The notes beneath the pieces are model-generated. The model did not search any database. It was not told where the DNA came from and saw nothing but the letters and a program-made list of their open reading frames with translations. A DNA stretch of 32,000 nt, taken from Lentibacter algarum (GTDB lineage: Bacteria > Pseudomonadota > Alphaproteobacteria > Rhodobacterales > Rhodobacteraceae). The stretch lies in the NCBI RefSeq assembly GCF_018860975.1, contig NZ_JAHKQI010000008.1, positions 132,626-164,625 of the forward strand. Reading direction: 5' to 3'. This document shows positions 13,698-28,092 of this stretch, piece by piece (the first letter of the stretch is position 1; each line of letters begins with the position of its first letter). The translations under genes and the position numbers were made by a program.

Positions 13698-13747
13698 TTG
13701 GCTCCGGCGGTAGGGATCGAACCTACGACAAATTGATTAACAGTCAA
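13698..13747 (-). repeat. Orphan copy of the tRNA-Asn 3' portion (att site, int-proximal)
   Basis: TGGCTCCGGCGGTAGGGATCGAACCTACGACAAATTGATTAACAGTCAA is identical to 28018-28066, and one extra T (13698 / 28017) also matches. It runs from CCA back through the anticodon loop into the 5' strand of the anticodon stem. The sequences diverge immediately after (GCG vs CTG). Confidence 0.95.
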
Positions 13748-13814
13748 GCGACGATATTTACTCACTTGGTGTAAGTTGATGCGGTTCATTAGTAAAAACA
13801 GTGGTTTGCACCTG

Positions 13815-13824
13815 TTTTGCAACG
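13815..13824 (-). repeat. CGTTGCAAAA motif copy (inverted orientation)
   Basis: TTTTGCAACG on the + strand, i.e. the reverse complement of the motif found in tandem at 13874-13894 and 27940-27961. Confidence 0.6.
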
Positions 13825-13873
13825 ACAATCAATCGGTTGACAGTGCGCCGGAATGCGCCTTAGTGATTTTGTG

Positions 13874-13894
13874 CGTTGCAAAACGTTGCAAAAA
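13874..13894 (+). repeat. Tandem CGTTGCAAAA motif (2 copies), candidate arm-type integrase/excisionase binding sites or int operator
   Basis: CGTTGCAAAA-CGTTGCAAAAA ends 14 bp upstream of the integrase ATG (13908). The same tandem occurs at the opposite island end (27940-27961). Confidence 0.6.
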
Positions 13895-13907
13895 CGGAGC
13901 ATTACGG

Positions 13908-15056
13908 ATGACTGCCGCACTTGATTTCACAAAGCCCGCCCGACTGCGAAAAGCCGCACCCGGCATGTATCGCCACGACGGGGATCGTTTCCCCGGCCTC
14001 TATCTCAACGTCGGGAAGACCAAGAACACTTGGTACATCAAACGCCGCGTCGATGGGAAAACGAAGTCGATCAAGGTCGGAGCGTTCCCGGCTATGGATG
14101 CGGTCACCGCGTTTAAACAGGGGGACACCAAGACGAGCGTTGCCAAGAGCAATATCGTAACCGTTCGCGATGGTTGGGAGTTCTGGTGCGATACGTCGCA
14201 GGCGCAAGGCGGTATGTCCGACGATCACCGCAACCGAATGTCCCGACAGCTTGAAATGCACGCGAGGGGGATCATGGACCGCAATGTGGCCGACGTAACC
14301 TCCGCAGACGTTCAGGGTGTCCTCAACGACCTGATGGCTGAGGGAAAGAAGGCAACAGCGAGGGCGGTGCGCATCGGTATCGGCAATGCTTTCAACTTCG
14401 CACCCGTCGTAAATCCAGTTGGGCAGAAAAAGACGCGCGTCGCCAAAAGCGATGAAACAGAGGCGCAATGGACGGCGGCGGCACACGCCCACGATCTCGA
14501 CGCAGACGATTGGTCGGTGATCTGGGAGGCAATAATGGCGCGACGTGAGAAGAACGTCATTGTCGGCACGGCGGTCGCCGTCATGTTCCTTACGGGCATC
14601 CGGTCGGAGAACGTTTGCTCGCTCTCGTGGGATCAAATCGATTTGCAGAACAAGACGATCCACCTGACCAAGATGAAGAACAAACTCGCCCGCACGTTGC
14701 CCGTGATGGATACGGTGATCGACCTGCTCAAGGCGATCCGTGAGACGGACAGTGAATGGGTGTTCCCGGCGTCGTCGGCCACGGGATACATCACGGACCC
14801 CAAAGGCACGTTCGCCACGATCAACGACGAGAGCGTCCGCGTTTTCCTGCCTCATGATGGGCGGCGTCATTTCATGCAGGCGTCTGCCGAGGCGTTCTTG
14901 CCCGACTATGTCGCCCACTTCCTGCGCGGCGATAAGAAGGCGGGCGAGGGTAGCGACATGCTGATGAAATACCTCAAGCGCATGGGTAACCGTCGTGCCG
15001 TCGAGGACATTGAAAAAGTGTATTTCAACCGCATTAAGGTAGAACCTTCTTTCTAA
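13908..15056 (+). CDS. int: Divergent tyrosine recombinase / integrase
   Basis: I chose ATG 13908 (GGAG 9 nt upstream) as the start. The N-terminus ...GLYLNVGKTKNTWYIKRRVDGKTKSIKVG... is a DUF4102-like arm-binding domain. The C-terminus ...FLPHDGRRHFMQASAEA...FLRGDKKAGEGSDMLMKYLK is a degenerate HxxR ... Y catalytic region. The gene is adjacent to the att repeat. Confidence 0.8.
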   Translation: MTAALDFTKPARLRKAAPGMYRHDGDRFPGLYLNVGKTKNTWYIKRRVDGKTKSIKVGAFPAMDAVTAFKQGDTKTSVAKSNIVTVRDGWEFWCDTSQAQGGMSDDHRNRMSRQLEMHARGIMDRNVADVTSADVQGVLNDLMAEGKKATARAVRIGIGNAFNFAPVVNPVGQKKTRVAKSDETEAQWTAAAHAHDLDADDWSVIWEAIMARREKNVIVGTAVAVMFLTGIRSENVCSLSWDQIDLQNKTIHLTKMKNKLARTLPVMDTVIDLLKAIRETDSEWVFPASSATGYITDPKGTFATINDESVRVFLPHDGRRHFMQASAEAFLPDYVAHFLRGDKKAGEGSDMLMKYLKRMGNRRAVEDIEKVYFNRIKVEPSF

Positions 15057-15248
15057 ATTGTTTGTTAACCGCAACTGCACTAAGATGCCCGAGCACCTAC
15101 GCCCGTCGTGAGACGCGCGCCACTCTGGCAGTGCACAGCATACCCAAGTACGCGGCGACGTGATGCGGCTTGGTTCTATGAAGCTCGTTGCGTCGCATAT
15201 CAACAGAGAGCGTCTGTCTTGGTAAAGGACCGACGAAAGGATCTGTTG

Positions 15249-15500
15249 ATGGATTCCTCCGCACTATTGCGCACGCTCGAAAAGCGCATTGAACATCTCG
15301 AGCAAAAAGCCGAACTCCCAAAACTCATGACACCGAAACAGGTGTGCAACTTCGTGGGCATTTCGGAATCGAAATTCTACGAATGGAAACGTGACGGCGA
15401 CGTGCCGCCTTCGATCTATTGGAGCGAGCGCACAGTGCGCTATGACCGCGACGATGTGATTGCTTGGGCAGAGTCGCACAAAGTAGGAGGGGCAGTATGA
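15249..15500 (+). CDS. AlpA / excisionase-family helix-turn-helix protein
   Basis: 83 aa starting at ATG 15249 (AAGGA RBS). ...LMTPKQVCNFVGISESKFYEWKRDGDVPPSIYWSERTVRYDRDDVIAWAES... has the typical AlpA/HTH_17 pattern, and the gene sits between int and the replicase as in P4-like elements and PICIs. Confidence 0.75.
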   Translation: MDSSALLRTLEKRIEHLEQKAELPKLMTPKQVCNFVGISESKFYEWKRDGDVPPSIYWSERTVRYDRDDVIAWAESHKVGGAV

Positions 15501-15588
15501 ACCTGCCCCTCACTGTTCGCGTATCGGGTATGGAAAGCGTTGTGCGCTATAACTGATTTATAGACGGCGACGCGACGACACGCGACCA

Positions 15589-17979
15589 GTGAAGCAGGTC
15601 CATCCTGATAATGGTATGGACAAACAAACATCAGAAGCTCTCCTTCGCCTCTTTGATGGCAACCAAGATCGCCATCTTGTTCTCAGCGGCAAGCCATCGA
15701 AGAATGACAAAGGCAAAATCGAAACCAAAGCGCGGCTTGACGACGGCCCGCTGACCCTCGAAATGGCCCGCGCGCATTTGGAGGGCGATGCCTCTTATGG
15801 CATTTCGCCTGTGCGCGCAGACAGCACGTGTCTCTATGGTGTGCTCGACATTGACTGGTATGACATGCCCGAGGACGACGTTCGCCTGGTGGCTGATCAA
15901 CTGCGCACCCGATGCGCTGCCTTCCGCACAAAGTCACGTGGCTTGCACGTCTATGTCTTCGCGTCTGAGCCTGTTTCGGCACGCGTGATGCACGATTACC
16001 TAGTTGCCCTGCGTAAGCGCCTCCCGAAAGCGTGCTTCGACAAGAAGCAAAAGCGAGATGTCGAAATATTCCCGAAGGAGACACAGACAGTCGTTAACCC
16101 CGACGACCAACCAACTTCTGTCAATTTACCAATGAAAGGGCAACAGCGTGAATTGGCATGGCTGATCGACGAGAGCGCGAGTCCGAAATGGGCACTCGAC
16201 GAAATGAGCGCGCTCAGCATCCTTTCGCACATCGACGAACATTGCCGCGTTGATGCCGCGACCATGGCTGCCATTACAAATGAGCAGCCGACACTCGACA
16301 CGTCGGACATTGGCTACAAGATTCCTGACGATCCAGCTGGTCGAAACGATCTGTTGATGCGTATTGCCGCCTCCATGCAAACGCGTGGCTGGCCGGACAG
16401 TGAATTGGAAGCGGAAGTTCGAAAACTGAATGGCGACGAAAAATTCCATGACTTGTTCATGGTGGGCGCGCTGACGGAATCCGAGATCAAGAACATCCTG
16501 AAACGGACGAAGAAGCTCGACAAAGGCACACCGACGCCGTTGCATTATCGGCAAGTTGAGAAGTTCAATCGCGACTGGTCGAAAATCACGATCAACGGCA
16601 CAGTCGAATACCTCGACAAAACGTCGCCTGAGTTCACAACGTTCACCAAGCAGATGCTGTTCGATGAAACCTCGGACAAAGTTGTCCGGATCGGCAAAGC
16701 AACAATCCCGCTTGCTCAACTGTGGTTGCGCGATCCCGATCACGCTCGGTTCAAGGGCGTTGTCTGCGAACCTGTCGAGTATGCAGGCCCCGGCTACAAT
16801 GTGTGGTGCGGTTTTGCTGTCGCCCCCAAAGATGGCGACGCTTCGGTGTTCGAACGTTACATCTTGGAGGTGTTGTGTTCGGGTGACGAGGATCTTGCTC
16901 ACTGGGTGACGATGTGGCTCGCGGACGCCGTGCAAAACCCGACTGAGCCTTCACCGCCAACAGCAATCGCATTGCGCGGCAAGCAAGGCGGCGGCAAGTC
17001 GTTCCTGCAAGAGCGCATCCTGACGCTGATCTTCGGCGAGCGGTATGTCCAGAAGGTTCAGGAGTCGCAACGTTTGTTCTCGCGGTTCAATCGCGGCATC
17101 TTTGGCGCGACCTTCATCGCCTGCGAAGAGTCGATCTTTCATGGATCGCAGGCGACGGCGGCGACGCTTAAGTCGTTCATCTCGTCACCTGCTTGGACCT
17201 ATGAGGAAAAGCATAAGGCGGTCGTGCAGGCAAAAAATGTTCACCGTATCATCGCCACGACGAACGAGACCCAAGCCGTCCATATCGACTTTGACGATAG
17301 GCGGTGGACGGTGATCGAGGTCGCGCAACCATTCGACATGACGACCCGTGACGGTCAAGCGGAGGCGTACGCTTTTTGGGAGCCTTATCACGCGTTCATG
17401 CGATCAGACGACGGCCCAGGTATCGTGTTGCGCTACTTGCTCGACTATCCGGTAGACAGGCAGGCTCTGACGTTTGGCTATGGCACGGAGGCTAAGGCGC
17501 GCGACAAGGTGGCATCCGATCCTTTGATTGCTGCTTTGCACGAGATTGCTGAGCGCGGCATTGTCCCGCATGACCGAAAAGCGGCGGGCATCATCTCGAA
17601 CAAGACTTTGACCACGCTTGTCCATCAGTCGGGCGGACGCAACATGTCGCCCGAAGAAATCGCCAACAAGCTGCTCAACCTGATTCCGGGAGTGAAGAAG
17701 TCGCGGAAGGCGCAGTATTGCGAACGCGTCCACACGTCCACGGACATGAACGGCGACGCTTCGGCAACGCCTATGATGGAGTCGGGGCAGCGAGGCTACG
17801 ACTTTGGCACGCTGACTGACTTTCGGGCGGCTGTGACGCGGCTGACTTTGCAATCTTATGGCGAGGACGACGAGGCGGTGGACTTTGACCCTGCCGACTT
17901 CGACATGCCCGATACGGGCGGATGGCAGGCATGGCAGGTCGCGCAAAAGGAAGACCCGAATGGTGATCCGCCTTTTTGA
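15589..17979 (+). CDS. Replicase: N-terminal AEP prim-pol domain, PriCT-like linker, C-terminal D5/SF3-type P-loop NTPase
   Basis: 796 aa. The prim-pol metal motif is ...YGVLDIDWYD... and the His motif is ...KSRGLHVYVF.... The PriCT-like segment is ...RIAASMQTRGWPDSELEAEVRKLN.... Walker A is ...LRGKQGGGKSF..., Walker B-like ...FIACEES..., and motif C ...RIIATTNE.... The start is GTG 15589 or ATG 15616. Confidence 0.85.
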   Translation: MKQVHPDNGMDKQTSEALLRLFDGNQDRHLVLSGKPSKNDKGKIETKARLDDGPLTLEMARAHLEGDASYGISPVRADSTCLYGVLDIDWYDMPEDDVRLVADQLRTRCAAFRTKSRGLHVYVFASEPVSARVMHDYLVALRKRLPKACFDKKQKRDVEIFPKETQTVVNPDDQPTSVNLPMKGQQRELAWLIDESASPKWALDEMSALSILSHIDEHCRVDAATMAAITNEQPTLDTSDIGYKIPDDPAGRNDLLMRIAASMQTRGWPDSELEAEVRKLNGDEKFHDLFMVGALTESEIKNILKRTKKLDKGTPTPLHYRQVEKFNRDWSKITINGTVEYLDKTSPEFTTFTKQMLFDETSDKVVRIGKATIPLAQLWLRDPDHARFKGVVCEPVEYAGPGYNVWCGFAVAPKDGDASVFERYILEVLCSGDEDLAHWVTMWLADAVQNPTEPSPPTAIALRGKQGGGKSFLQERILTLIFGERYVQKVQESQRLFSRFNRGIFGATFIACEESIFHGSQATAATLKSFISSPAWTYEEKHKAVVQAKNVHRIIATTNETQAVHIDFDDRRWTVIEVAQPFDMTTRDGQAEAYAFWEPYHAFMRSDDGPGIVLRYLLDYPVDRQALTFGYGTEAKARDKVASDPLIAALHEIAERGIVPHDRKAAGIISNKTLTTLVHQSGGRNMSPEEIANKLLNLIPGVKKSRKAQYCERVHTSTDMNGDASATPMMESGQRGYDFGTLTDFRAAVTRLTLQSYGEDDEAVDFDPADFDMPDTGGWQAWQVAQKEDPNGDPPF

Positions 17980-18002
17980 TTGAAAAGTTGTCACGGGGTA
18001 CG

Positions 18003-18034
18003 AAAGGCATGTCACGGGGTGACATGCCTTTTTT
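18003..18034 (+). terminator. Rho-independent terminator after the replicase gene
   Basis: AAAGGCATGTCAC-GGG-GTGACATGCCTTT forms a 10-13 bp perfect stem followed by a TTTTTT run. The stem itself contains the TGTCAC/GTGACA motif of the adjacent iteron field. Confidence 0.8.
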
Positions 18035-18063
18035 GATTTAACGCTAAGTGGTTATGCGAATTC

Positions 18064-18256
18064 TGTCAGTTATGTCAGTAATGACAGGGGTAAATTCATA
18101 TGCTGTGACGTTGGTGATTTGTCCACGGCTGCTCGGGCACGATGCGTGTTTGCTGCTACTATTATTTTACTGACATAACTGACAAACTGACAAACCTTCT
18201 TGAAAACAAAGCATTTTTGGTATGTCAGGCTGCTGCTTGGGTGACAAAGGGTGACA
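18064..18256. repeat. TGACA/TGTCA iteron field (candidate replication origin)
   Basis: TGTCAGT x2 plus an inverted TGACAGG lie at 18064-18089. ACTGACATA-ACTGACAA-ACTGACAAA lies at 18169-18195 with TGACA at 18171, 18180 and 18188. TGTCA lies at 18223. GGGTGACAA-GGGTGACAA lies at 18239-18258 with TGACA at 18242 and 18252. Two further TGTCACGGGG copies lie at 17988 and 18010. The region is non-coding and immediately downstream of the prim-pol/helicase gene. Confidence 0.6.
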
Positions 18257-18427
18257 AGGTTCATTGGGTGCGTTCTGGCGGCAGGTGACCTCCTCCCGCT
18301 TTCTCCGCATTCTTGTTGCGAGCAAGTCGCAACTGTGGTGGTTGAGCGAGGTCAATTGATCATCAATGAATTGTCGCCCGTGGTGGTTTGACTTGAAGAT
18401 CAAGCGGTTAGTCGTATTGGCGCAGTC

Positions 18428-18456
18428 TTTTGCAACGCGCTTTGCAACGGCAACGG
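18428..18456 (-). repeat. CGTTGCAAA motif cluster (2-3 copies, inverted orientation), mid-island
   Basis: TTTTGCAACG (18428-18437), TTTGCAACG (18441-18449) and GCAACGG (18450-18456). These are reverse complements of the motif at both island ends. Confidence 0.55.
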
Positions 18457-18501
18457 AAATCCACCTCAGAATGCGTCAATAAGGCTGACATAAATCGCAG
18501 T

Positions 18502-19143: not shown

Positions 19144-19387
19144 CTCGGTACAAATGGAGCCCCACCTTAGTGGGTATTGGCTGGCGGTCAACACCACCTT
19201 CTTTTCTCTCAATTCCACCTCATTCCACAGACCAACGCCCCGACAGCGGATGATACGCAATTCATGCTGAGCCTATGGCGTGCCGATGAAACGCGCCACT
19301 CCTGCGCGCACCCGGTGACCCTGTGGCTGTTTCCTTTTGGCCTTGCCTGCCGGGTGTGCGCGATCACAACCCGAAAGGACGACCACA

Positions 19388-19654
19388 ATGACCATTACCG
19401 CAACAATCGACGAGCATGAAGCAGTCACGCTCACCTATACCCGCATGAACACCACGTCGAACCTTGGTGTGCCCGACGCAGCCGCCTTCGCTGACGACCT
19501 CAAGTCGACCTTCAACCCCGATCAGGGCGACATCTACCGCGATGCCTATAACGTCTTGGTTCAACCCGATGGCGTAACCGTCGAAGTGCATCCCCATTCG
19601 TTCCCGATCCCGTGGCAGCACATCGCCTCTGTGGTCGATCAGCTCAATGCCTGA
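19388..19654 (+). CDS. Hypothetical protein (88 aa)
   Basis: ATG 19388 is preceded by an AAAGGA RBS. This is the first gene of a tightly overlapping + strand cassette. I recognise no motif. Confidence 0.5.
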   Translation: MTITATIDEHEAVTLTYTRMNTTSNLGVPDAAAFADDLKSTFNPDQGDIYRDAYNVLVQPDGVTVEVHPHSFPIPWQHIASVVDQLNA

Positions 19655-19655
19655 C

Positions 19656-19892
19656 ATGACCGTTGCACCCCTATGGCGTGAACTGTCGCTGACGCGCGGC
19701 ACACTCCGTGACCGCGGCCTGCGCGTCCACGGCGTGTGGACCATGCACATTGGCCTCGACACCCCACCACGCGTCTATGTCGATTGGCAGGACGTGCCGA
19801 ACAAGCACGAGATGACAGTCGCTGAACACCTGATCGTTGCCCGCAAAATCGTCCACATCGAACCCGGCGGCAGAAAGCCGTGGATGGAATGA
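19656..19892 (+). CDS. Hypothetical protein (~78 aa)
   Basis: ATG 19656 (or ATG 19647, which overlaps the previous stop). The coding-like ORF is contiguous with its neighbours. No motif recognised. Confidence 0.45.
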   Translation: MTVAPLWRELSLTRGTLRDRGLRVHGVWTMHIGLDTPPRVYVDWQDVPNKHEMTVAEHLIVARKIVHIEPGGRKPWME

Positions 19893-20224
19893 CGGGCACG
19901 GCTGAGGGCGCGTTTGTCGCGGCCATCATCTCGCAAGCATATTCCGACATGCTTGGCCCCGGCGACGACCACGCATACGCAGCAATAACCTTCCTAACCG
20001 CCCCTAATGGCCGACATGCCCGATGGCGCGGCGAACTGTTCGGGCTCTTGGGTCTTGATGGTGACATTGCCGCCCAACGCATCGTCGAAGGGCTTGAAGG
20101 CAACGCCGACCTGCACCCCTTCACACTGGAAACAAGTGAGCAACACGCCGCGCAGGTCGATCTTGCCCGCGAGCGCTGGCTCCACCTTAAACACCCCCAC
20201 ACTCTACCTGCTTCTTCGGTGTAA
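19889..20224 (+). CDS. Hypothetical protein (~111 aa)
   Basis: ATG 19889 overlaps the upstream stop as ATGA; GTG 19880 is an alternative start. No motif recognised. Confidence 0.45.
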   Translation: MTGTAEGAFVAAIISQAYSDMLGPGDDHAYAAITFLTAPNGRHARWRGELFGLLGLDGDIAAQRIVEGLEGNADLHPFTLETSEQHAAQVDLARERWLHLKHPHTLPASSV

Positions 20225-20341
20225 CCATTCATCCTTGGATTGTATTTTGCTTTCGACGGATTGGTGAATTTGTCGTCCTTAACCAGCTTAACGGACGCGG
20301 CCCACCAGTCGCGTTCGCTTTGGTTACGAAAGGACGATAAA

Positions 20342-20965
20342 ATGGCCGATGAAACGACCGCCGCAATTCAGGCGTTGATTAAACAGGTGGGTGCGCTCAC
20401 CGAGACCGTCGTTAAACAGAACACCCAAATCGACGACCAAAACACCCGCCTCGACAAACTGCACGAGTTCAACGGGCGTGTGCTGGATCAAAAAAAGGAT
20501 TTGGAACGTAAAGCAAGCTCGCAACCTACGCCCGAGAAAATCGCCGAGATGGCCAACGCCGGACTCGTTCCCGGTGACGATGGCAATTGGTATATGCGCG
20601 GAACGAAACCCTCACACAGTCTGACACGCGAAGAAGCGCGTGATCCCAGCAAATACCGCGAGGCGAAAGCGGCAGCAGAAAAAGCAGGCGCAACACTGAC
20701 CATCGTTGATCCAACCGCCGCCGACGACACGCATCGCCGTTCATCGCGCACAGAAATCGATTCGTCGCTGAAAACCACACTCATCCGCGACGATGACCAA
20801 AAAGTCGCCTATATGCGCCGCGATGTAATGCGTTCAGATACGCGTCAATACCGCCAACTGCGGGCTGACGGGTTCAACGTGCAGTCGTGGGACAACGCCG
20901 ACGATCTTCCGCAGCACATGCGGACAAAACTTGCATTGATGGAAAAAGCCAATGCGCCCGATTGA
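20342..20965 (+). CDS. Hypothetical protein with N-terminal coiled coil (207 aa)
   Basis: ATG 20342 with an AAAGGA RBS. The N-terminal heptad-like segment is MADETTAAIQALIKQVGALTETVVKQNTQIDDQNTRLDKLHEFNGRVLDQKKDLERK, followed by a charged, low-complexity middle. Its position upstream of the terminase genes fits a scaffold- or redirection-type role, but that is inference only. Confidence 0.5.
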   Translation: MADETTAAIQALIKQVGALTETVVKQNTQIDDQNTRLDKLHEFNGRVLDQKKDLERKASSQPTPEKIAEMANAGLVPGDDGNWYMRGTKPSHSLTREEARDPSKYREAKAAAEKAGATLTIVDPTAADDTHRRSSRTEIDSSLKTTLIRDDDQKVAYMRRDVMRSDTRQYRQLRADGFNVQSWDNADDLPQHMRTKLALMEKANAPD

Positions 20966-21332
20966 TCGCGCCTGCTTGCAGTACGCCTATCAGGTCGTGC
21001 TTGGCGTTGACCACGCCTATGTCTCACCGACAGGGGCGTGCCTGCTGCTAAATCACGCGGAGAAACTTGATCCCGCAGGCGATCCCATATCAGCCGCAAT
21101 CGCCGCGCTGGCCGCGATGATGAAGCTCCACCTTGGCGGTATCGGGTTTGGTGAGTTGCGCAACGACCTCGTTGGGTCGGGCGTCGGTGAAGATTTCGCA
21201 AATCGCGTTCATGACCATTTGGCTGATGTCTCCGAGAGTGAGTGGGTGGGTCTTCGCGACCGCATCCGTTGGTATGGCGACGATACGGGCGAACCGCCCC
21301 GTGCCTCAACCGACGTATCAGGAGGCAACTGA
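20952..21332 (+). CDS. Hypothetical protein (126 aa)
   Basis: The ATG overlaps the previous gene by 14 nt, and the stop lies 3 nt before the TerS-like start. No motif recognised. Confidence 0.45.
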   Translation: MRPIDRACLQYAYQVVLGVDHAYVSPTGACLLLNHAEKLDPAGDPISAAIAALAAMMKLHLGGIGFGELRNDLVGSGVGEDFANRVHDHLADVSESEWVGLRDRIRWYGDDTGEPPRASTDVSGGN

Positions 21333-21335
21333 ACA

Positions 21336-21923
21336 ATGGCAGGTAACAAAGGCAGCGGTCGGCCCAACACGATCCTCAATCACCCTGACAAGAATTCGAT
21401 CATTCGGTCGATTATCGAACGCGAATTGGGCGTGCCCGGTGCACCGTCATTCGCCAAGACTGCGAAGCGTGTCGGGCTGAATCCGGCGACAATTGATCGG
21501 TTTCGGAAGGATCACATCACGGAAGAAATGCGCCGTCACGTTGCGGGGCAGATCAAAATCGAACCAATCGACGAAACAACTCAATTCCTGAACCAAGAGC
21601 GGCTGGACGTTGGCAGCTCATATGAGTCCCTTGCGCGTCGCGTCGAAAAGCTGATCACGAAAGCCGAGGAAGCTGGCGACGATGGCTTTGCATTGGCCGC
21701 AATGGATGGCTTGCGGAAAGTGTTGAAAGACATCGCGACAATGCACGGCAAGATGGCAACCAGTTTGTCCGTCTCGGTTACTCTCGCGGAATCACCCGAA
21801 TGGGTCACGATGAAAAGCATCCTTCGCGCGGTGTGCGACGAGGTCCCCGAAGCTCAGCCCGTCCTTCTCAAACACATGCGCCAACACGTTCTCAGCGTCA
21901 CAAAAGAGGAGGCTGTGCTTTGA
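21336..21923 (+). CDS. Terminase small subunit-like DNA-binding protein
   Basis: 195 aa. The N-terminus MAGNKGSGRPNTILNHPDKNSIIRSII...AKRVGLNPATIDRFRK (GRP plus HTH) and the helical C-terminal oligomerisation-like region resemble phage TerS. The gene lies immediately upstream of the TerL ATPase. Confidence 0.55.
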   Translation: MAGNKGSGRPNTILNHPDKNSIIRSIIERELGVPGAPSFAKTAKRVGLNPATIDRFRKDHITEEMRRHVAGQIKIEPIDETTQFLNQERLDVGSSYESLARRVEKLITKAEEAGDDGFALAAMDGLRKVLKDIATMHGKMATSLSVSVTLAESPEWVTMKSILRAVCDEVPEAQPVLLKHMRQHVLSVTKEEAVL

Positions 21924-22150
21924 AGTCGCCCCATTCAGAATTCCTCGGCTGGGATCACTACGCTCGCGACCATGCAAGGCGTTTGGAAGCCGCCAACTCG
22001 GCAAGGCATCCCGAATGGGTTGAACTGCCCGCGACCCGCCGCGCCGCAAAAGGGGAAGCCAAGTATTTCACGGGCAAGCCGTGCGCGAATGGGCACATCT
22101 CCCCGCGATATTCATCTGGGTGTTGCCGCGCCTGTCAGACAGGGCGGTAA
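21920..22150 (+). CDS. Small Cys-rich zinc-ribbon protein (76 aa)
   Basis: The TTG start at 21920 sits 7 nt after a very strong SD (AAAGAGGAGG) and overlaps the TerS stop. ...YFTGKPCANGHISPRYSSGCCRACQ is a C-x4-H ... C-x2-C motif that recurs in alphaproteobacterial phage proteins. Confidence 0.5.
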   Translation: MKSPHSEFLGWDHYARDHARRLEAANSARHPEWVELPATRRAAKGEAKYFTGKPCANGHISPRYSSGCCRACQTGR

Positions 22151-22152
22151 AA

Positions 22153-22932
22153 ATGCCATTTGACGCCCTCATACCGTGGTGCGCAGAGCTTGAACGCTCG
22201 CTCGATCCCGCTGCGCGTCTGCGCCATTGGATCGGTCATGAGCCTGATCCTTGGCAGATCGACGCTTTTACCACGCAGGCGACGGAAGTCGCCCTGCGGG
22301 TCGGTCGTCAGGCGGGCAAGACCTCGGTGCTGGCCGCGCGCTCGGTTGAAGAATTGCACATCCCGGATTCATTGACCATCTGCGTTGCGCCCGCAGAGCG
22401 GCAAGCCAAGATCATCGCGCGAGAAATCGGGCGACAGTTGAAGCGCACCGAATTGGTCATCACGCGCTCGACGCTGACCGAACTCGAAATGTCGAACGGT
22501 GCCCGTGTCGTCGCGCTGCCGTCCACGTCGGACACTATTCGCGGCTATCCATCGGTATCGTGCCTGATCATTGACGAATGCGCTTTCTTGCAAGGCGATG
22601 GCGGCGGCGAAGACTTGATTGCGGGCGTCCTGCCAATGCTGACGGAAAAAGGGCAAGTTTATTTTAGCTCAACGCCTGCGGGCAAAAACAACTATTTCGC
22701 GCGTCTGTTCCTCGACGCAAAGCCGGGTGACGGTGTTCACCGCATTGTCGTCAAAGGCACGGACATCCCGCGACTGAAAGACAAAGTGGAGCGGATGCGT
22801 CGCACGTTGTCCGCGACCAAATTCCGCCAAGAGATCGAGTGCGAACTGCTTTCGGATGGCACCAGCTACTTCGACTTCTCAATCATCGAAAACGCAATAA
22901 GCACGGAGGGCGCAATATGTCCCAAGATGTGA
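22153..22932 (+). CDS. terL: Terminase large subunit, ATPase domain only (split TerL, N-terminal part)
   Basis: 259 aa from ATG 22153. Walker A is ...LRVGRQAGKTSVLA..., Walker B ...VSCLIIDECAFL..., and the coupling motif ...YFSSTP.... The ORF stops at 22932. Confidence 0.8.
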   Translation: MPFDALIPWCAELERSLDPAARLRHWIGHEPDPWQIDAFTTQATEVALRVGRQAGKTSVLAARSVEELHIPDSLTICVAPAERQAKIIAREIGRQLKRTELVITRSTLTELEMSNGARVVALPSTSDTIRGYPSVSCLIIDECAFLQGDGGGEDLIAGVLPMLTEKGQVYFSSTPAGKNNYFARLFLDAKPGDGVHRIVVKGTDIPRLKDKVERMRRTLSATKFRQEIECELLSDGTSYFDFSIIENAISTEGAICPKM

Positions 22933-23654
22933 ACTACGAAAACGCACTCAACCTCGTCTATCTGCCTGACGGGCGCGTAGTGAATGAAACAAACCAAGAC
23001 CCGGCCATCGAACGGGTCACGGGACACCAAAACTATTGGGTTGCCGCTGACCTCGGGCAGGCAAATGACTACACCGCCGTTGCAGTCATCAAAGACGAGG
23101 CGCTGCCCATCGTTGACGGATCGAAGGTCATCGTGGGACCGCGCCACCGTTCAATCGTACACGCTGATCGCTTCCGTGGCGTGTCCTATGTCGATGTCTG
23201 CGATTACCTGATCCGCTTGCGCAACGCGCCGCCGTTTGGTGGCAAGTCTGAACTTGTGATCGACGGCACGTCGCTCGGACGCGTCGTATCGGACATGCTC
23301 TGGGATCAATCAGTCGATCACCACGCCGTGCAAATGACCGGAGGCCAATCATGGCGCAAGGAAAGCTCGCGGTATGTCAACGCGGGGAAGACATTCATGA
23401 TCGAAAACTTGTCCGTGCTGTTTGCCTCAGGCGACCTCAAGTTTGCACATGACTTGCGGTTGCGCGACGAGATCGCATCCGACCTAGCCTCCTTCTCGTT
23501 GCAGACCACAGCAGCAGGCAATCAGATCATCACGCAGTCACGATCCGCAGGCGGTCACGGGGATTTGGGGATTGCGGTAATCGTCGGCGCGTTCGCGTCG
23601 CAATATCTGCGCCCGAAGATGGTCACGACCCACACGCTGCGCGGGTGGTATTGA
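22917..23654 (+). CDS. terL: Terminase large subunit, RNaseH-like nuclease domain only (split TerL, C-terminal part)
   Basis: 245 aa from ATG 22917 (GGAGGG 5 nt upstream), overlapping the ATPase ORF by 16 nt in another frame. ...YWVAADLGQANDYTAVAVI... contains the first catalytic Asp motif, and ...SAGGHGDLGIAVIVGA... is the late acidic motif. Confidence 0.75.
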   Translation: MSQDVNYENALNLVYLPDGRVVNETNQDPAIERVTGHQNYWVAADLGQANDYTAVAVIKDEALPIVDGSKVIVGPRHRSIVHADRFRGVSYVDVCDYLIRLRNAPPFGGKSELVIDGTSLGRVVSDMLWDQSVDHHAVQMTGGQSWRKESSRYVNAGKTFMIENLSVLFASGDLKFAHDLRLRDEIASDLASFSLQTTAAGNQIITQSRSAGGHGDLGIAVIVGAFASQYLRPKMVTTHTLRGWY

Positions 23655-23804
23655 CGTCTGTCGTCGCACTCTTGGCAACCGCGTGGGACGTAACACCGTG
23701 AACTCGACGAGCGAACGCGATGAACTGCGCAGCTCTGCGGTAATGCGGGGTTTTGGGCATAACCGTGGGGCACCGACCATAACCACCTTCGCTGACGGGG
23801 ATTT

Positions 23805-23831
23805 GCGGCGACCACGGGTAGTGGTCGCCGC
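23805..23831. terminator. Perfect 11-bp hairpin between convergent transcription units
   Basis: GCGGCGACCAC-GGGTA-GTGGTCGCCGC lies 6 nt beyond the stop of the 44-aa gene (- strand) and ~150 nt after terL-C (+ strand). There is no strong U-tract on either strand, so its termination function is uncertain. Confidence 0.45.
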
Positions 23832-23837
23832 AGCGGT

Positions 23838-23972
23838 TTAAAGAAACGAAAAGCCCACTGCGACGAGCGCAACGACGATCACGAATACGGCCCCAACGGC
23901 AATGTTGCCGCTTGCATTTGCTTCGAAGTGCTTTCCGATTTTGATCAGGAGTTTGTTTTCTTGGCTGTTCAT
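23838..23972 (-). CDS. Unannotated 44-aa single-pass membrane peptide, downstream of and probably co-transcribed with the AIPR-like gene
   Basis: It is absent from the ORF track (<60 aa). My hand translation is MNSQENKLLIKIGKHFEANASGNIAVGAVFVIVVALVAVGFSFL*. A GAGGAG RBS lies 7 nt upstream of the ATG and overlaps the stop of the AIPR-like ORF. The C-terminal ~22 residues form a hydrophobic helix. Confidence 0.6.
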   Translation of the reverse strand: MNSQENKLLIKIGKHFEANASGNIAVGAVFVIVVALVAVGFSFL

Positions 23973-23983
23973 GCCTAAGCTCC

Positions 23984-25207
23984 TCAACCCATTGTGTCCA
24001 ATTGCTGCTGCATTACATGCAGCCGCACCGATTTGAACAAATTGGCCCAGTGGTTTCGATTTTTACCAAGCGAATCCGGCGCATTACCGATGTCACTAAT
24101 TGCTTGTTTAGTTTCTGAAACCAACTCAGGCGCTAGGTCGCGCCAAGAAGCAAGAACGTTCTCGAAACCGCCAACCCATTCAGCGCATCCGGTGTCCGGA
24201 TTGATTGAAACAAAATTTCGAAACGCGCCCAGAATTGGGTAAGCGGCCCCCTTGGTCAAACGCTGGTCGTGGTCGTCCAGTTTTGCATATTGGAACTTGT
24301 GTCGGCCCTTGCTTGGAGGAGCCTTCTCCACAATCCTCAGGTTTCCGGCGCGGCCTTTGACGGTCTCATTGTAAACCTTGAGAAATTCCCGGCGAATGTG
24401 ATCGTATAGTACAAGAGTTTCGATCAGTAGAGGTTCAAAGGCCGCGTATTTTCTGGGTTCGCCAGTTTTCTTGTGCTCTTTAAAGTCGTCACCATACTTC
24501 ATCAGCGGCGTTGACCACTTCTCATAGGCCGCAATTGGATGCTTAGACTCACGAACAGGAAAATCCGTGACGTTCATCAGTTCAAGAACAGACACCAGTT
24601 CTCGGACGTCAATGTCCTTCTTGTCTGACTCTTTGAAACCAATATCGTTTGCCCAGTCTTGATCCTTCACGATTTCCTTGAGGCTATCGAACGCGCCATC
24701 AAGTTCAAAGATCGACCGAGGTTGCACAGAAATTCCAGTGTTCTGCCCTCTTGCGATGTCCACACGCAGTGTGTGGTTTTCTCCACCTTCTAGCCCGGTG
24801 ATGATTTTGACTTCGACGTGCTGGCCTTCGCCGATCGAATCATCCTCTTGACAGTCGTAAATGATCCGGGTGGTGTGGCCGCCATTGGCGATACCGTAAT
24901 CATCATCAATCATGACGTCGAAGACCCGCTTGTCGATCACCTCGATGTCTTCGGCAATGATGGTAATCCCCAGATTCAACAGGTCGAAGGTGCCTGGCAG
25001 TGCCTCTTTGCCTTCGAGGCTTGCTTTTACGTCCTTATACACCTGCCGGTTCATACCAACAGGGTCGCGCAAATTTGCGCCCGTCGGGACGTCCTTTGGG
25101 AAGAGGCGTGCAGGGACCAAGAAGGTGTGCTTGACGATGTTTGGGAGGGTGGGGTGTTTAACGCTACGCGCTTCGGACACCTCAAACCGATATGGTTTGA
25201 TAGCCAT
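23984..25207 (-). CDS. AIPR-like (abortive-infection phage-resistance family) protein, tentative
   Basis: The likely start is MAIKPYRF (ATG 25207, GGAG upstream); alternative starts are 25222 and 25252. ...GTFDLLNLGITIIAEDIEVID...DDDYGIANGGHTTRIIY... resembles the AIPR N-terminal core (..NG.QT..). The gene is visibly AT-richer than the island backbone and is divergent from a cytosine methyltransferase. Confidence 0.45.
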   Translation of the reverse strand: MAIKPYRFEVSEARSVKHPTLPNIVKHTFLVPARLFPKDVPTGANLRDPVGMNRQVYKDVKASLEGKEALPGTFDLLNLGITIIAEDIEVIDKRVFDVMIDDDYGIANGGHTTRIIYDCQEDDSIGEGQHVEVKIITGLEGGENHTLRVDIARGQNTGISVQPRSIFELDGAFDSLKEIVKDQDWANDIGFKESDKKDIDVRELVSVLELMNVTDFPVRESKHPIAAYEKWSTPLMKYGDDFKEHKKTGEPRKYAAFEPLLIETLVLYDHIRREFLKVYNETVKGRAGNLRIVEKAPPSKGRHKFQYAKLDDHDQRLTKGAAYPILGAFRNFVSINPDTGCAEWVGGFENVLASWRDLAPELVSETKQAISDIGNAPDSLGKNRNHWANLFKSVRLHVMQQQLDTMG

Positions 25208-25435
25208 TCTTGAGTACTCCATGGGCCACGACGGACCAATGTTGCGGGGCACGATGACCCCGGACGGCAGGATTGCCTGAGCCTTGGTACCAAAAAATCA
25301 GCGTTATGGCAACACAGGTTGCGCTTTTTTTCTCGTCCGACACAAGATATGCTGTTACTGATTTTCACGAGACATAAAGGCTGGGCAGTTAGGACTTGAT
25401 CCCGTGATAAACAAAATGACGAGAAAAACGACGAG

Positions 25436-26584
25436 ATGATGGGTTTCAATTACTACGACTTCTTTGCAGGTGGCGGCATGGCCGGGTTTGGTCTCGGGTC
25501 GAACTGGGATTGCCTGTTCGCGAACGACATAGACGCGAAGAAGGCAGCGAGTTACCGCGCCAACCATCATGGCGGCAAGGAACTGCTGCTAAAGGACGTT
25601 GCTCAGGTCACATTAGACGAACTACCCGGGTCGCCTGACCTCGTGTGGGCCTCATTTCCATGCCAAGACCTGTCGCTTGCTGGCAATGGTGCGGGCCTCG
25701 CGGGCAAGCGTAGCGGGATGTTCAAACCGTTCTGGAAACTGATGCGGTCACTTCACGCCGATGGTCGCGGCCCCAAGATCATCGCACTAGAGAACGTCTA
25801 CGGGGCGATCACGAGCAATGGCGGTCGAGACTTCGCAACACTTGCCGCTGCCTTCTCGGGCCTTGGGTATAGGTTCGGCGCTGTCGTCGTCGATGCGGTG
25901 CACTTCCTACCGCAATCCCGTCCGCGCTTCTTCATGGTAGGTGTTCGGGGCGACTTGACGATCCCGGAAAGTCATACAGTAGATGGCCCTTGCGCGATGT
26001 GGCATCCGCCCGCGCTTATCGAAGGTTGCAACCTGCTTTCGCAGACAGCAGCATCGCGTTGGCGTTGGTGGAACCTGCCAACACCGCCAGCTCGGAACAC
26101 AAACCTTGCTTCGCTGATCGAAGACAAGCCGACTGGTGTAAAGTGGCACACGAAAGCAGAAACCAAATACCTGCTCGACATGATGACCGACCACAACCGC
26201 AAGAAAGTCGAAGCGGCCAAGCAGTGTGAAGAGCGGGTGGTGGGCACGATCTACAGGCGCACGCGCGCGGACGCTGATGGTGTGAAGCGGCAGCGGGCAG
26301 AGGTGCGCTTTGACCAGATTGCTGGGTGCCTACGCACGCCTGCTGGCGGTTCAAGCCGTCAGACAATCATGTTGGTAGAGGGAAGCAAGGTTCGCTCGCG
26401 CTTGCTGTCAACGCGCGAAGCCGCATCCCTAATGGGCCTGCCTGAAACCTATATCCTACCTGAACGCTACAACGACGCCTATAAACTCGCGGGCGATGGC
26501 GTTGCCGTTCCGGTCGTTCGTCACCTTGCAGAGGCGATCTTTGAACCGCTCTTAAAGCGGAATCGACTCGCTTTGGTTGCCTGA
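25436..26584 (+). CDS. dcm: DNA (cytosine-5) methyltransferase
   Basis: 382 aa with the canonical C5-MTase motifs: I DFFAGGGM, IV SFPCQDLS, VI ENV, VIII QSRPRFF, and X GDGVAVPVV. Confidence 0.92.
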   Translation: MMGFNYYDFFAGGGMAGFGLGSNWDCLFANDIDAKKAASYRANHHGGKELLLKDVAQVTLDELPGSPDLVWASFPCQDLSLAGNGAGLAGKRSGMFKPFWKLMRSLHADGRGPKIIALENVYGAITSNGGRDFATLAAAFSGLGYRFGAVVVDAVHFLPQSRPRFFMVGVRGDLTIPESHTVDGPCAMWHPPALIEGCNLLSQTAASRWRWWNLPTPPARNTNLASLIEDKPTGVKWHTKAETKYLLDMMTDHNRKKVEAAKQCEERVVGTIYRRTRADADGVKRQRAEVRFDQIAGCLRTPAGGSSRQTIMLVEGSKVRSRLLSTREAASLMGLPETYILPERYNDAYKLAGDGVAVPVVRHLAEAIFEPLLKRNRLALVA

Positions 26585-26603
26585 TTTCTAGTAAGTATCG
26601 GTC

Positions 26604-27314
26604 ATGGTTGACCGAAATCCCGACGATACAAATTTCCCACCTTTTGAAACCGAAGATCTTCGGTCCAATTTGGCTGAGTTTCTAACCCAGAAATTCGATG
26701 ATCCGATCACAGGGAAGCCGCGCGTAATAGGCGGCTTCAAATGGGGCGTATATGCTTTCTTCGATTACGACGGAGAACCTATTTACGTCGGCCAGACGAA
26801 AGAAAAAGTAAGTACCCGAATTAGGCGGCACCTGACAAATCAGCGGACAGATGCTGTTGCAATGTCGGTGCTTGACCCGTTCGAGGTTTACGAGGTCGAA
26901 GTTTGGCCACTACCGCAGTTTCAGAAAACAGGCGCAACTGATGTTGCCGCCAAAGCGCATTTGGATGCCCTTGAGGACCTTGTTTATCAAGAGGCGATTG
27001 CAGGCAGCACTTTCAAAGCGGTGCTAAATGAAAAAGACCCACCTGCACCGACAGTAGCCGTGACGAAACCCCCATCGCTTCGCTATCGACTTGTCTCGGA
27101 CGAGGTTCACAAGATTAGGTCGCACCCTGATTTCCGCATTGCACGGCGAGCCTTGATCATCTCGCGTCTGGCGCAGGTCATCTCGGAGCGGAAGGTGCAA
27201 GGTGGGCTACGACGGGTATTGTTGACCCAAGCTAAGCGGCTACAATGGCTTGCAGAGCGACGCTATGTGGCGTTGGGCGGGGAAGCGTCGGTCGAGGTTG
27301 AGGAAGGCGAATAA
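26604..27314 (+). CDS. GIY-YIG nuclease-domain protein (candidate restriction endonuclease partner of the C5-MTase)
   Basis: 236 aa, 19 bp downstream of dcm on the same strand. ...KWGVYAFFDYDGEPIYVGQTKEKVSTRIRRHL... matches the GIY ... YIG ... R ... H core. The ~110-aa C-terminal region is unassigned. Confidence 0.65.
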   Translation: MVDRNPDDTNFPPFETEDLRSNLAEFLTQKFDDPITGKPRVIGGFKWGVYAFFDYDGEPIYVGQTKEKVSTRIRRHLTNQRTDAVAMSVLDPFEVYEVEVWPLPQFQKTGATDVAAKAHLDALEDLVYQEAIAGSTFKAVLNEKDPPAPTVAVTKPPSLRYRLVSDEVHKIRSHPDFRIARRALIISRLAQVISERKVQGGLRRVLLTQAKRLQWLAERRYVALGGEASVEVEEGE

Positions 27315-27346
27315 CACCCGCGAGGTTGCACATGTTTCGGGTCTTT

Positions 27347-27856
27347 CTAGAACGGCACGTCGTCGTCAGACGACTCGAACGGATTGGCGACCTTTTTGTC
27401 GGGCCAATTCACTGAGGGTTCGTCATCCGTCTTAGGTGCCTCCCCACCTGCGGCTATGTCCTTCTCAATCATCCGTTCAAGCGCCTTGCCGTAGGCTGGC
27501 ATCTTCCACGACTTCTCGCCCGCTTCCTTACCGCGTTCGTCCTGAATGTCATTGATAGGGCGTTTCGGATGTAGTCCGATCACATACCCTTCATGGCGGC
27601 GCACACCGCCCGACTTGTTCGAGCGCCGCCGCTTCTTCGGAAGTGCGTAAAATACTCGAACCTTTTCCCAGTCGTCGGGGTCAAGCACCTCTTGGAAGAA
27701 GTGGAATCGTTCATCGACAGTCAGCGGGCTGGCTTCCTGGTCGGACAGAAATACACGGCCGTCAGAATCGACGGTCACATTGTGCATATGCTTCTCGCGG
27801 AAGTTGGGCGTCCTGTAGCGCGGTGATCGCCTAGACTTTCCTGTCGTGGTTTTCAT
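27347..27856 (-). CDS. Protein of unknown fold with an SSB-like acidic C-terminal tail (...SSDDDVPF)
   Basis: 169 aa. The last residues, NPFESSDDDVPF*, mimic the conserved bacterial SSB tip (DDDIPF). The N-terminal ~120 aa (…VDSDGRVFLSDQEASPLTVDERFHFFQEVLDPDDWEKVRVFYALPKKRRRSNK…) shows no OB-fold SSB signature that I recognise. Confidence 0.6.
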   Translation of the reverse strand: MKTTTGKSRRSPRYRTPNFREKHMHNVTVDSDGRVFLSDQEASPLTVDERFHFFQEVLDPDDWEKVRVFYALPKKRRRSNKSGGVRRHEGYVIGLHPKRPINDIQDERGKEAGEKSWKMPAYGKALERMIEKDIAAGGEAPKTDDEPSVNWPDKKVANPFESSDDDVPF

Positions 27857-27866
27857 GAACCCGATG

Positions 27867-27892
27867 TTGACCAGTCAGCGCATTGTGGTCAA
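27867..27892. promoter_or_regulatory. Inverted repeat TTGACCA-N12-TGGTCAA upstream of the SSB-tail gene (candidate operator)
   Basis: Perfect 7-bp arms at 27867-27873 and 27886-27892, starting 11 bp upstream of the ATG at 27856 on the - strand. Confidence 0.4.
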
Positions 27893-27939
27893 GCGTTTGA
27901 AGCGAAATGCAAATAGCTGTAACTGCCCAAAGCGTCACG

Positions 27940-27961
27940 CGTTGCAAAATCGTTGCAAAAA
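27940..27961 (+). repeat. Tandem CGTTGCAAAA motif (2 copies) at the tRNA-proximal island end
   Basis: CGTTGCAAAAT-CGTTGCAAAAA has the same sequence and orientation as 13874-13894 at the other end, and lies ~57 bp from the att core. Confidence 0.6.
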
Positions 27962-27963
27962 TC

Positions 27964-27989
27964 AAAAAAGGCGAACCCGAAGGTTCGCC
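27964..27989 (-). terminator. Rho-independent terminator for tRNA-Asn, supplied by the island
   Basis: On the - strand, GGCGAACC-TTCG-GGTTCGCC is followed by TTTTTT, ~28 nt downstream of the tRNA CCA end and inside the island. Confidence 0.75.
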
Positions 27990-28017
27990 CATTTTACTTA
28001 ACTATCAAGTAGTTAAT

Positions 28018-28092
28018 TGGCTCCGGCGGTAGGGATCGAACCTACGACAAATTGATTAACAGTCAACTGCTCTACCGCTGAGCTACGCCGGA
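28018..28092 (-). tRNA. tRNA-Asn (anticodon GTT), intact, with encoded CCA
   Basis: The reverse complement is TCCGGCG-TA-GCTC-AGCGGTA-GAGC-A-GTTGA-CTGTTAA-TCAAT-TTGTC-GTAGG-TTCGATC-CCTAC-CGCCGGA-G-CCA. This is 75 nt with a full cloverleaf. Confidence 0.95.

Follow-up and report, generated by a model that had tools for sequence, protein, structure and literature searches.

How can an island that encodes a DNA-packaging motor, and in which no gene for a particle is recognised, persist as a mobile element? The question is raised by a 14.3 kb island of Lentibacter algarum (Alphaproteobacteria; Rhodobacterales), located in a stretch of 32,000 nucleotides (contig NZ_JAHKQI010000008.1, positions 132,626 to 164,625) that is referred to here in its whole length as the window. 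An earlier note on this DNA, made from the letters alone, had described a satellite-like island with a full set of terminase genes and no head, tail or lysis genes, and had proposed that its terminase packages island DNA into procapsids of a helper phage. By comparing the island with its relatives, we arrive at a modified form of this proposal: the island is intact and belongs to a conserved integrative family of ~14.4 kb found mainly in Rhodobacterales, and it behaves most likely as a phage satellite that brings its own terminase and a CpmB-like scaffold mimic acting on the helper capsid protein. We assign to this reading a probability of about 65%.

None of the island open reading frames (ORFs) tested gave a Pfam or PHROG match to any family of capsid, portal, protease, tail or lysis proteins, which confirms the part of the earlier description that concerns protease, tail and lysis genes; capsid, portal, tail and lysis families are also missing from the most frequent cargo families of the relatives. 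The relatives were collected by scanning genomes with an alignment of the ATPase subunit of the large terminase (62 loci) and by a metagenome scan (73 loci). Counts given below refer to the bounded set of 39 elements from the genome scan that are enclosed by perfect repeats of 19-53 nt, most of them 45-53 nt; the metagenome scan adds eight bounded elements of 13.9-15.6 kb.

Packaging genes and the scaffold-motif protein o207

The late region of the island is a tightly packed plus-strand operon, in which the starts and stops of o207, o126, o195, the Zn-ribbon gene and the two genes for the large terminase (TerL) overlap or abut (Table 1). The ATPase subunit of TerL matches Terminase_6N and phrog_7579, the latter being an ATPase-only TerL family, and is 100% identical to an NCBI protein from Lentibacter algarum. 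Its Walker A motif RQAGK(T/S) is conserved, residues R52, Q53, G55, K56 and E142 are invariant, and D141 of Walker B belongs to the class of columns conserved in at least 90%. The nuclease subunit is encoded by a separate gene, its family profile matches the TerL nuclease structures of Thermus phages (5m1f, 5m1q and 5tge, E ~4e-6), and the acidic residues D45, D51, D116 and D216 are invariant. Both halves of a T4-type large terminase (Terminase_6N/6C) are present in this pair, namely an ATPase with Walker motifs and the catalytic Glu, and an RNase H-like nuclease with its acidic residues.

The division of TerL into two ORFs could in principle be explained by a frameshift or a pseudogene, an origin that we rejected: across 47-98% protein identity, the junction keeps a ribosome-binding site and an ATG of its own. 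In ~33 of the 39 elements a GGAGG-like ribosome-binding site and the ATG of the nuclease gene lie within the final 16 nt of the ATPase gene; an ATGA overlap takes their place in the members that diverge most. The two subunits, which the earlier note had entered as separate ORFs with no remark, are thus read as products of two conserved genes with predicted translational coupling. A distant relative (L094, 33% identity) has a Terminase_6N gene followed by a Terminase_6C gene at 10001-11531, within a prophage-like head module that includes portal and HK97-type capsid genes. The split therefore predates the satellite and derives from a real phage lineage, and split large terminases appear to be a natural arrangement that has been under-noticed. 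The top-ranked TerL ATPase match among sequenced phages, Meiothermus phage MMP17 (32% identity, 96% coverage), was also considered as a precedent and rejected, its TerL being encoded by a single gene. On a Methanocrinis (archaeal) contig, L095, the ORF that comes after a Terminase_6N ATPase gene has 225 aa and no Pfam match on record (882-2304).

The candidate for the small terminase subunit (TerS) is o195. Sequence variation in its alignment is concentrated in the first ~80 residues, most invariant columns follow residue 86, and the C-terminal half is nearly invariant. The AlphaFold2 model (pLDDT 71.6) consists of a three-helix helix-turn-helix (HTH) domain and a long helical hairpin (residues 63-140), and in elements that have no Zn-ribbon ORF the o195 stop overlaps the TerL start. 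Searches by fold and profile returned a weak Foldseek match to 2ao9 (E 0.36), weak matches of five among 40 family members to the TerS family phrog_57 (4e-4), and nothing significant in the PDB profile search with the family. The architecture and position fit the expected design of TerS, and we call o195 a small terminase with moderate confidence. The earlier identification of four packaging genes thus stands in full for the Zn-ribbon protein (phrog_1081), the TerL ATPase (Terminase_6N/phrog_7579) and the TerL nuclease (phrog_27743 and TerL structures), and at a moderate level for TerS.

The main correction to the earlier note concerns o207, the largest previously unassigned product of the island, which had been judged too small for a portal or a typical major capsid protein. 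This judgement agrees with its confident AlphaFold2 model (pLDDT 83.7), which has no fold match in PDB or BFVD and displays neither the HK97 capsid fold nor a portal fold; the PDB profile search with the family also gave nothing significant. When 1.84 billion representative proteins were searched with a profile, only 309 relatives were obtained. Among the matches, residues 84-123 of o207 correspond to the extreme C-termini of ~260-aa proteins that are phrog_206 head-scaffolding proteins (E down to 3e-37), and the direct comparison of o207 with phrog_206-class scaffolds by hhalign supports the same correspondence (98.8%, E 5e-17, 37 columns). The shared motif reads (I/L)(S/T)RE-ARD--KYR-AK-AAEKAG--L-I. 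The similarity is confined to this segment: 37 columns align, the window protein itself has no phrog_206 match, and the element has no capsid gene. From its sequence, o207 is best classed as a motif-sharing relative of scaffolds, not a scaffold proper.

When the GenBank phage collection was searched with the motif, one phage matched, namely Dinoroseobacter phage vB_DshS_R26L, a 79.5-kb Nanhaivirus of another Rhodobacterales host. In R26L the motif makes up the C-terminal 33 residues of a 255-aa protein, the gene for which is located directly upstream of the coat protein gene (hhalign 98.2%, E 6e-14), and metagenomic homologues are likewise found in the scaffold-then-capsid gene position. We did not identify R26L as a helper; the motif aside, no R26L gene within 50,001-79,534, the region of head and tail genes, resembles the island proteins. 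What R26L offers is a hint at a class of phages.

The C-terminal part of scaffolds is the part that binds capsid protein in P22 and 80alpha. In SaPI1, the CpmB protein and the helper scaffold have this C-terminus in common; CpmB competes with the scaffold for one site and so forces the formation of small capsids (PMC5644958). By analogy, o207 would bind the capsid protein of a helper, and its role could be redirection of capsid size, bringing the element terminase to procapsids, or interference with the helper alone. The earlier picture of an element that has a terminase and no head-related genes has to be changed at this point, for the invariant o207 shares the C-terminal motif of head-scaffolding proteins. 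Because of this motif, the element probably intervenes directly in the capsid assembly of its helper, as SaPI CpmB does, and its strategy would go beyond packaging alone.

Two further loci on short contigs (L089 and L090) encode small proteins (P0372, P0361 and P0400) with two or three tandem copies of the ~30-residue scaffold C-terminal motif, near a gene for a Cro/CI-type HTH protein. These may represent another kind of capsid-binding interference protein.

Gene order, mobility and size of the family

Nearly all of the 62 loci belong to Rhodobacterales, with a few in Sphingomonadales, Hyphomicrobiales and Parvularcula. The terminal repeats of the 39 bounded elements mostly overlap the 3' end of a tRNA gene, and six tRNA species are used in this way (Asn, Thr, Lys, Ala, Gly and Arg). 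The gene order established by tblastn is shared across the family: int-alpA-replicase-o105-o114-o207-o126-o195-(Zn)-terLA-terLN-cargo, then the tRNA. The genes int, o207, o195, terLA and terLN are present in all 39 bounded elements and AlpA in 37 of them; the core proteins span 47-98% identity, and the modules are mosaic at the DNA level. No conserved family of the late module has a median length above 271 aa. The homologous islands are thus a conserved compact element and not a remnant with variable deletions, an outcome that the earlier note had named as decisive; together with the structural analysis of the 207-aa ORF, it leaves standing the interpretation of a satellite with its own complete terminase.

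Head-to-tail tandem pairs that share the middle attachment (att) repeat were observed twice, in a Roseovarius metagenome-assembled genome (OX638333.1, ~4.197-4.227 Mb; L041 and L002) and on metagenome contig Ga0316204_10003990 (L096 and L122). The partners in tandem are different elements, with ~53% versus 97% TerL identity to the window element. The shared middle repeat indicates that the att site can be used again and that elements can accumulate in tandem.

The total size of the elements is indirect evidence for encapsidation. Across the 39 elements it has a mean of 14,435 bp, a standard deviation of 529 bp and a range of 13,061-15,950 bp. The early region (standard deviation 799 bp) and the cargo (765 bp) are each more variable than the total, and their lengths are inversely correlated (r = -0.78, p = 4e-9). 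Under random re-pairing of the parts, the expected standard deviation of the total is 1,144 bp as compared with the observed 529 bp, a value not reached once in 20,000 permutations. Three TerL clades, taken separately, also show the compensation (r = -0.81, -0.82 and -0.72), and they have mean sizes of 14.46, 14.35 and 14.56 kb. From the constancy of size and the compensation in length, we infer that the 14.4 ± 0.5 kb of these elements probably reflects a limit set by capsid capacity.

Two observations on individual relatives are added here. Rhodobacter capsulatus DSM 1710, a strain of the model species for gene transfer agents, has two loci (L045 and L043), one of which is an apparently complete member for which no flanking tRNA or direct repeat was found; the second copy, ~7.5 kb from a tRNA-Asn, matches only TerLA residues 74-259 and TerLN, and no other core gene. 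Several contigs contain an element only and break in the att repeats or within ~600 bp of them, including L063 (Logan, 13,124 bp, identical in five samples), L104 and L054. Such contigs are consistent with presence/absence polymorphism in natural populations.

Integration, replication and cargo

The boundaries drawn earlier at direct repeats of the tRNA-Asn 3' part were recovered as a perfect 50-nt repeat at both ends of the island (13698-13747 and 28017-28066, spacing 14,319 bp). The Rfam scan found two tRNAs and nothing else. A strong hairpin terminator (13662-13691) lies immediately outside the distal att copy, at the position expected for the original terminator of the tRNA. The 10-mer CGTTGCAAAA has six exact copies in the window, five of them no more than ~150 bp away from an att core. 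Arm-type integrase sites of an attP are placed in this way, and the sites are listed as putative in Table 1. A further pair (18428-18449; one exact copy and one with a single mismatch) is distant from the att cores, in the interval that separates the origin from the 252-aa ORF on the minus strand, and may be a regulatory binding site.

The front end of integrase, AlpA-type HTH protein and replicase with adjoining iterons, which had been recognised from the sequence, is supported by Pfam domain matches and by the iteron counts. The TGTCAGK word occurs six times within 18064-18229, and 15 times in the whole window as compared with 6.6 expected. The replicase module is exchangeable and variable, being swapped among relatives. 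The 252-aa accessory ORF behind the origin has no Pfam, PHROG or PDB match. Among the small late proteins, no family match was obtained for o105 in the Pfam and PHROG scans, nor any PDB, Pfam or PHROG match for o114 and o126.

An imperfect direct repeat of 37 nt (70% identity) occurs once within o105 (19460-19496) and once more (23761-23797) in a stretch of ~140 bp right after the nuclease gene. This stretch is also conserved in the relatives L002, L012 and L019. The repeat could be due to chance or could be a packaging-related site.

The cargo slot, defined as the interval from the nuclease gene to the tRNA, occupies 3.3-6.7 kb in the 39 elements, roughly 4.8 kb. It is filled mainly by type II/IIG restriction-modification genes, reverse transcriptases, UvrD-like helicases and abortive-infection proteins, and also contains kinases and ABC-3C components; judged by this gene content, the slot is a predicted defence hotspot like those of other satellites. 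The defence cargo of the window island (AIPR, C5 methyltransferase and GIY-YIG nuclease) is absent from the earlier note; the GIY-YIG nuclease is likely the restriction partner of the methyltransferase. The 169-aa cargo ORF has no Pfam or PHROG family match, and the same is true of the conserved att-proximal genes of the relatives.

Table 1. Features of the island in the order of their positions in the window
Feature	Position	Strand	Evidence and remarks
Distal att copy	13698-13747	-	Displaced tRNA-Asn 3' 49 nt + 1 nt; perfect match to 28017-28066
Putative arm-type integrase sites	13815-13893	.	10-mer CGTTGCAAAA in three exact copies, to one side of the att core
Tyrosine integrase	13908-15056	+	PF00589 3.7e-12, Phage_int_M 8.2e-8, Arm-DNA-bind_3 1.1e-4; ORF open from 13776, ATG at 13908 is the probable start
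AlpA-type HTH protein, putative excisionase/activator	15249-15500	+	HTH_17 1.5e-9, Phage_AlpA 5.7e-6
Replicase, 796 aa, AEP primase-polymerase fused to DUF5906/VapE-like helicase	15589-17979	+	DUF5906 1.7e-17, AEP-TOTE 4.3e-11, VapE-like 9.1e-8
Terminator hairpin closing the early operon	18002-18032	+	14-bp stem, then T-run
Putative replication origin, TGTCAGT/ACTGACA iterons	18064-18257	.	Inverted clusters flanking an AT-rich spacer; tandem and inverted repeats
Accessory ORF, 252 aa	18502-19260	-	Common to L016 only among relatives
o105, small late-module protein	19388-19654	+	Family in 28/39 relatives
o114, small late-module protein	19880-20224	+	Family in 33/39 relatives
o207, scaffold-motif protein, 207 aa	20342-20965	+	60-aa N-terminal helix and alpha/beta domain; residues 87-123 are the scaffold C-terminal motif; 39/39 relatives
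o126, small late-module protein	20952-21332	+	14-nt overlap with o207 stop; 25/39 relatives
o195, TerS-like protein	21336-21923	+	Variable N-terminal HTH, highly conserved helical C-terminal half; 39/39 relatives
Zn-ribbon protein, 76 aa	21920-22150	+	TTG start after AAGAGGAGG ribosome-binding site; phrog_1081 9.2e-7; 22/39 relatives
TerL ATPase subunit, 259 aa	22153-22932	+	Terminase_6N (PF03237) 5.6e-11, phrog_7579 3.7e-35; 39/39 relatives
TerL nuclease subunit, 245 aa, separate gene	22917-23654	+	phrog_27743 1.1e-27; 39/39 relatives
Predicted membrane protein, 44 aa, cargo	23838-23972	-	Downstream of AIPR; from translation
AIPR-family abortive-infection protein, cargo	23984-25252	-	PF10592 3.8e-19; PADLOC AbiU 1e-9
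C5 cytosine DNA methyltransferase, cargo	25436-26584	+	PF00145 5.1e-47
GIY-YIG nuclease, cargo	26604-27314	+	PF01541 2e-6; occurs with methyltransferase in L026
169-aa cargo ORF	27347-27856	-	Common to L026
Putative arm-type sites	27940-27960	+	Two copies of CGTTGCAAAA; opposite side of the att core
Intact tRNA-Asn(gtt) with proximal att	28017-28092	-	ARAGORN and Rfam; tRNA itself 28018-28092, its 3' 49 nt are the proximal att repeat (28017-28066)

The interval 1986-13632 is ordinary chromosomal context for the island, a cluster resembling reductive pyrimidine catabolism and uptake, with genes for dihydropyrimidine dehydrogenase-like subunits, an EamA transporter, a RutR-like TetR regulator, an M20 amidohydrolase, a dihydropyrimidinase-like amidohydrolase and an NMT1-type ABC transporter. 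At the left edge of the window, a second tyrosine integrase is encoded on the minus strand (11-1168; PF00589 2e-20, with arm-binding and SAM-like domains) within a low-GC stretch (1-2000, 47-50% GC). It is probably the end of another integrated element that reaches past the window edge.

Proposed life cycle, alternatives and known satellites

The observed features can be arranged into a tentative life cycle. The tyrosine integrase, together with the putative arm-type sites beside the att cores, would insert the element at the 3' end of tRNA-Asn, and the AlpA-type protein probably aids excision. The encoded primase-helicase would replicate the element from the adjoining iteron origin. The late-operon protein o207 with its roseophage-class motif probably binds the helper major capsid protein, competing with the helper scaffold in the manner of SaPI1 CpmB, and it may redirect assembly to a small capsid. 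The TerS-like protein would recognise the DNA and the two-subunit TerL would package it into procapsids built by the helper, from which capsid protein, portal, protease, tail and lysis functions would all have to come. Anti-phage systems fill the slot that follows the terminase and ends at the tRNA, in this island AIPR and the methyltransferase with the GIY-YIG nuclease.

A more detailed version, which we put forward tentatively and hold as somewhat less probable than its negation, describes a third piracy route between the classical phage-inducible chromosomal islands (PICIs) on the one side and the capsid-forming PICIs (cf-PICIs) on the other. In this version the element's own TerS and two-piece TerL would take the place of the whole helper motor and dock on a foreign portal, the scaffold mimic would reprogram the helper capsid protein into dedicated capsids of ~14.4 kb, and the helpers would be roseophages with Nanhaivirus-like scaffolds and with tail genes similar to those of gene transfer agents (GTAs). 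In a more radical sub-variant, GTA-derived particles may be exploited.

Several results weigh against a packaged satellite with a scaffold mimic. Among the contigs examined for excised forms, no circular or concatemeric contig, no terminal overlap and no permuted gene order was found, and IMG/VR gave one close locus only, which is truncated. By tblastn, GenBank phages have no detectable homologues of o195, of the nuclease subunit or of o207 over its full length, and the R26L terminase is unrelated to that of the element at the BLAST level. The scaffold motif of o207 is internal and not C-terminal, with an extra domain of 85 aa behind it, and capsid binding by the motif of this scaffold class is proposed by analogy to P22 and 80alpha. 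The assignment of o195 as TerS draws on architecture and position, its fold and PHROG matches being weak; the conserved small proteins o105, o114 and o126 had no functional match in the family searches. Finally, the elements are related by descent, and the size statistics are not fully independent.

The alternative that survives best, although we consider it unlikely, is that of an unpackaged defence or interference island, whose terminase-like and scaffold-motif proteins would sabotage infecting phages as decoy or poison subunits and which would be spread vertically or by generalized means. It would account for a cargo slot full of anti-phage systems and for the failure to find free or packaged forms among contigs and in IMG/VR, and the scaffold-motif protein could merely block capsid assembly. 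However, the tight total size with its length compensation is hard to explain without encapsidation. Decoy subunits also do not readily explain a full set of TerS-like protein, ATPase and nuclease with conserved catalytic residues, in which the N-terminus of the TerS-like protein varies as a specificity domain would. Moreover, the element's own replicase and origin, the turnover of integrases and att sites over six tRNA species and the tandem arrays indicate active horizontal movement.

Two other explanations are, to an equal degree, highly improbable. According to the first, the element is an autonomous miniature virus whose capsid, portal and tail proteins are hidden as novel folds among o105, o114, o207 and o126. 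There are indeed four conserved late proteins to which no function was assigned, and many assemblies give element-only contigs of ~13-15 kb. The median length of the late-module families, however, never exceeds 271 aa, and a terminase needs a portal, none of which is present; o207 has a scaffold motif and no shell, capsid or portal fold, no lysis or tail families were found, and the element-only contigs end at the att repeats, as expected for assembly breaks at a polymorphic insertion.

The second of these explanations is a satellite of GTAs, which would use particles of the RcGTA type and would bring a sequence-specific terminase of its own to make up for the lack of specificity in that of the GTA. 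RcGTA-like clusters are widespread in the same alphaproteobacterial orders, and the host range of the family (Rhodobacterales with a few Sphingomonadales, Hyphomicrobiales and Parvularcula) overlaps the orders that carry them; Rhodobacter capsulatus itself has two copies, one of them partial, and R26L, the roseophage with the scaffold motif, has GTA-like tail genes. Against this, RcGTA heads hold ~4 kb, a capacity far below 14.4 kb, and the motif occurs in phages that have a separate scaffold gene beside the coat gene, whereas we know of no separate phrog_206-type scaffold in RcGTA.

The least tenable alternative, a decayed prophage remnant that kept its terminase genes by chance, as the presence of terminase genes with the remaining head module missing might suggest, is effectively refuted by the comparative data, in which the same compact order is found inside intact att repeats in 39 genome-scan and eight metagenome elements with matching sizes, mosaic modules and tandem arrays, the core is conserved over 47-98% identity, and the split TerL junction is conserved with its own ribosome-binding site.

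If the satellite reading with its own terminase and scaffold mimic is true, a motor and a scaffold mimic without a shell would show that the interface between terminase and portal can be crossed between unrelated elements, which would amount to a new design for capsid hijacking. Roseobacter-group bacteria are major marine heterotrophs and model hosts for GTAs; through its defence-filled cargo slot in these hosts, the family is a likely vehicle for the spread of anti-phage defence in the sea. The copies in Rhodobacter capsulatus DSM 1710 provide a genetically tractable experimental handle, and the shared scaffold motif provides a concrete handle in the search for a helper phage.

To our knowledge, the known satellites either borrow the large terminase of the helper (P4, PICI, PLE and PICMI) or bring a whole head (cf-PICI). 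The island has much in common with PICIs of Gram-negative bacteria such as EcCICFT073: a front end of int, alpA and primase/replicase with an adjoining origin, site-specific integration, a size of ~10-15 kb, a packaging module placed after the replication module, the lack of capsid, tail and lysis genes, and defence cargo. Classical PICIs redirect the large terminase of the helper through TerS or Rpp and have no TerL of their own (PMC10085698), whereas the Lentibacter family encodes its own complete, split TerL. No homology to PICI packaging or capsid-morphogenesis families was detected in the Pfam and PHROG scans. Among the described satellite families, terL is a core gene in cf-PICIs only (PMC10085698). 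The possession of both TerS and TerL is shared with these elements, the TerS being moderately supported here; in contrast, cf-PICIs have further genes for a major capsid protein, a portal, a protease and head-tail connectors, none of which is found in the island, and take only tails.

With respect to capsid redirection, o207 resembles SaPI1 CpmB in combining a scaffold C-terminal capsid-binding motif with an N-terminal helical region, which serves oligomerisation in CpmB (PMC5644958). The two differ in that CpmB has 72 aa and a C-terminal motif, whereas o207, as known from its sequence and model, has 207 aa, an internal motif and the extra 85-aa domain; the two proteins have no sequence relation. 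P4-like satellites share with the island a P4-type integrase at a tRNA gene, AlpA, a primase-helicase, and a size of about one third of the 40-45 kb that is typical of helper genomes. P4 uses the terminase and cos site of P2, whereas the Lentibacter family has its own terminase, and the Pfam and PHROG scans of the island gave no homologue of Sid, Psu or Delta. Compared with PICMI (~6 kb; int, alpA, primase, fis and terS), the island is larger at 14.3 kb, has no Fis match and possesses TerL.

Marine VEIMEs and PICI-like tycheposons also integrate at tRNA genes and carry integrase and primase genes, some of them with TerS and 'motor-like ATPases' (PMC9618062; bioRxiv 2020.12.28.424599). They have been described with TerS or a major capsid protein, none of them from Rhodobacterales, and are set apart by these descriptions, which lack a module of TerS, split TerL and scaffold-motif protein. 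In the literature searched there was no description of a satellite with TerL and without a capsid, and none of a satellite from Rhodobacterales. The best explanation of the Lentibacter element is, in our view, a new family of phage satellite that stands outside every named family found.

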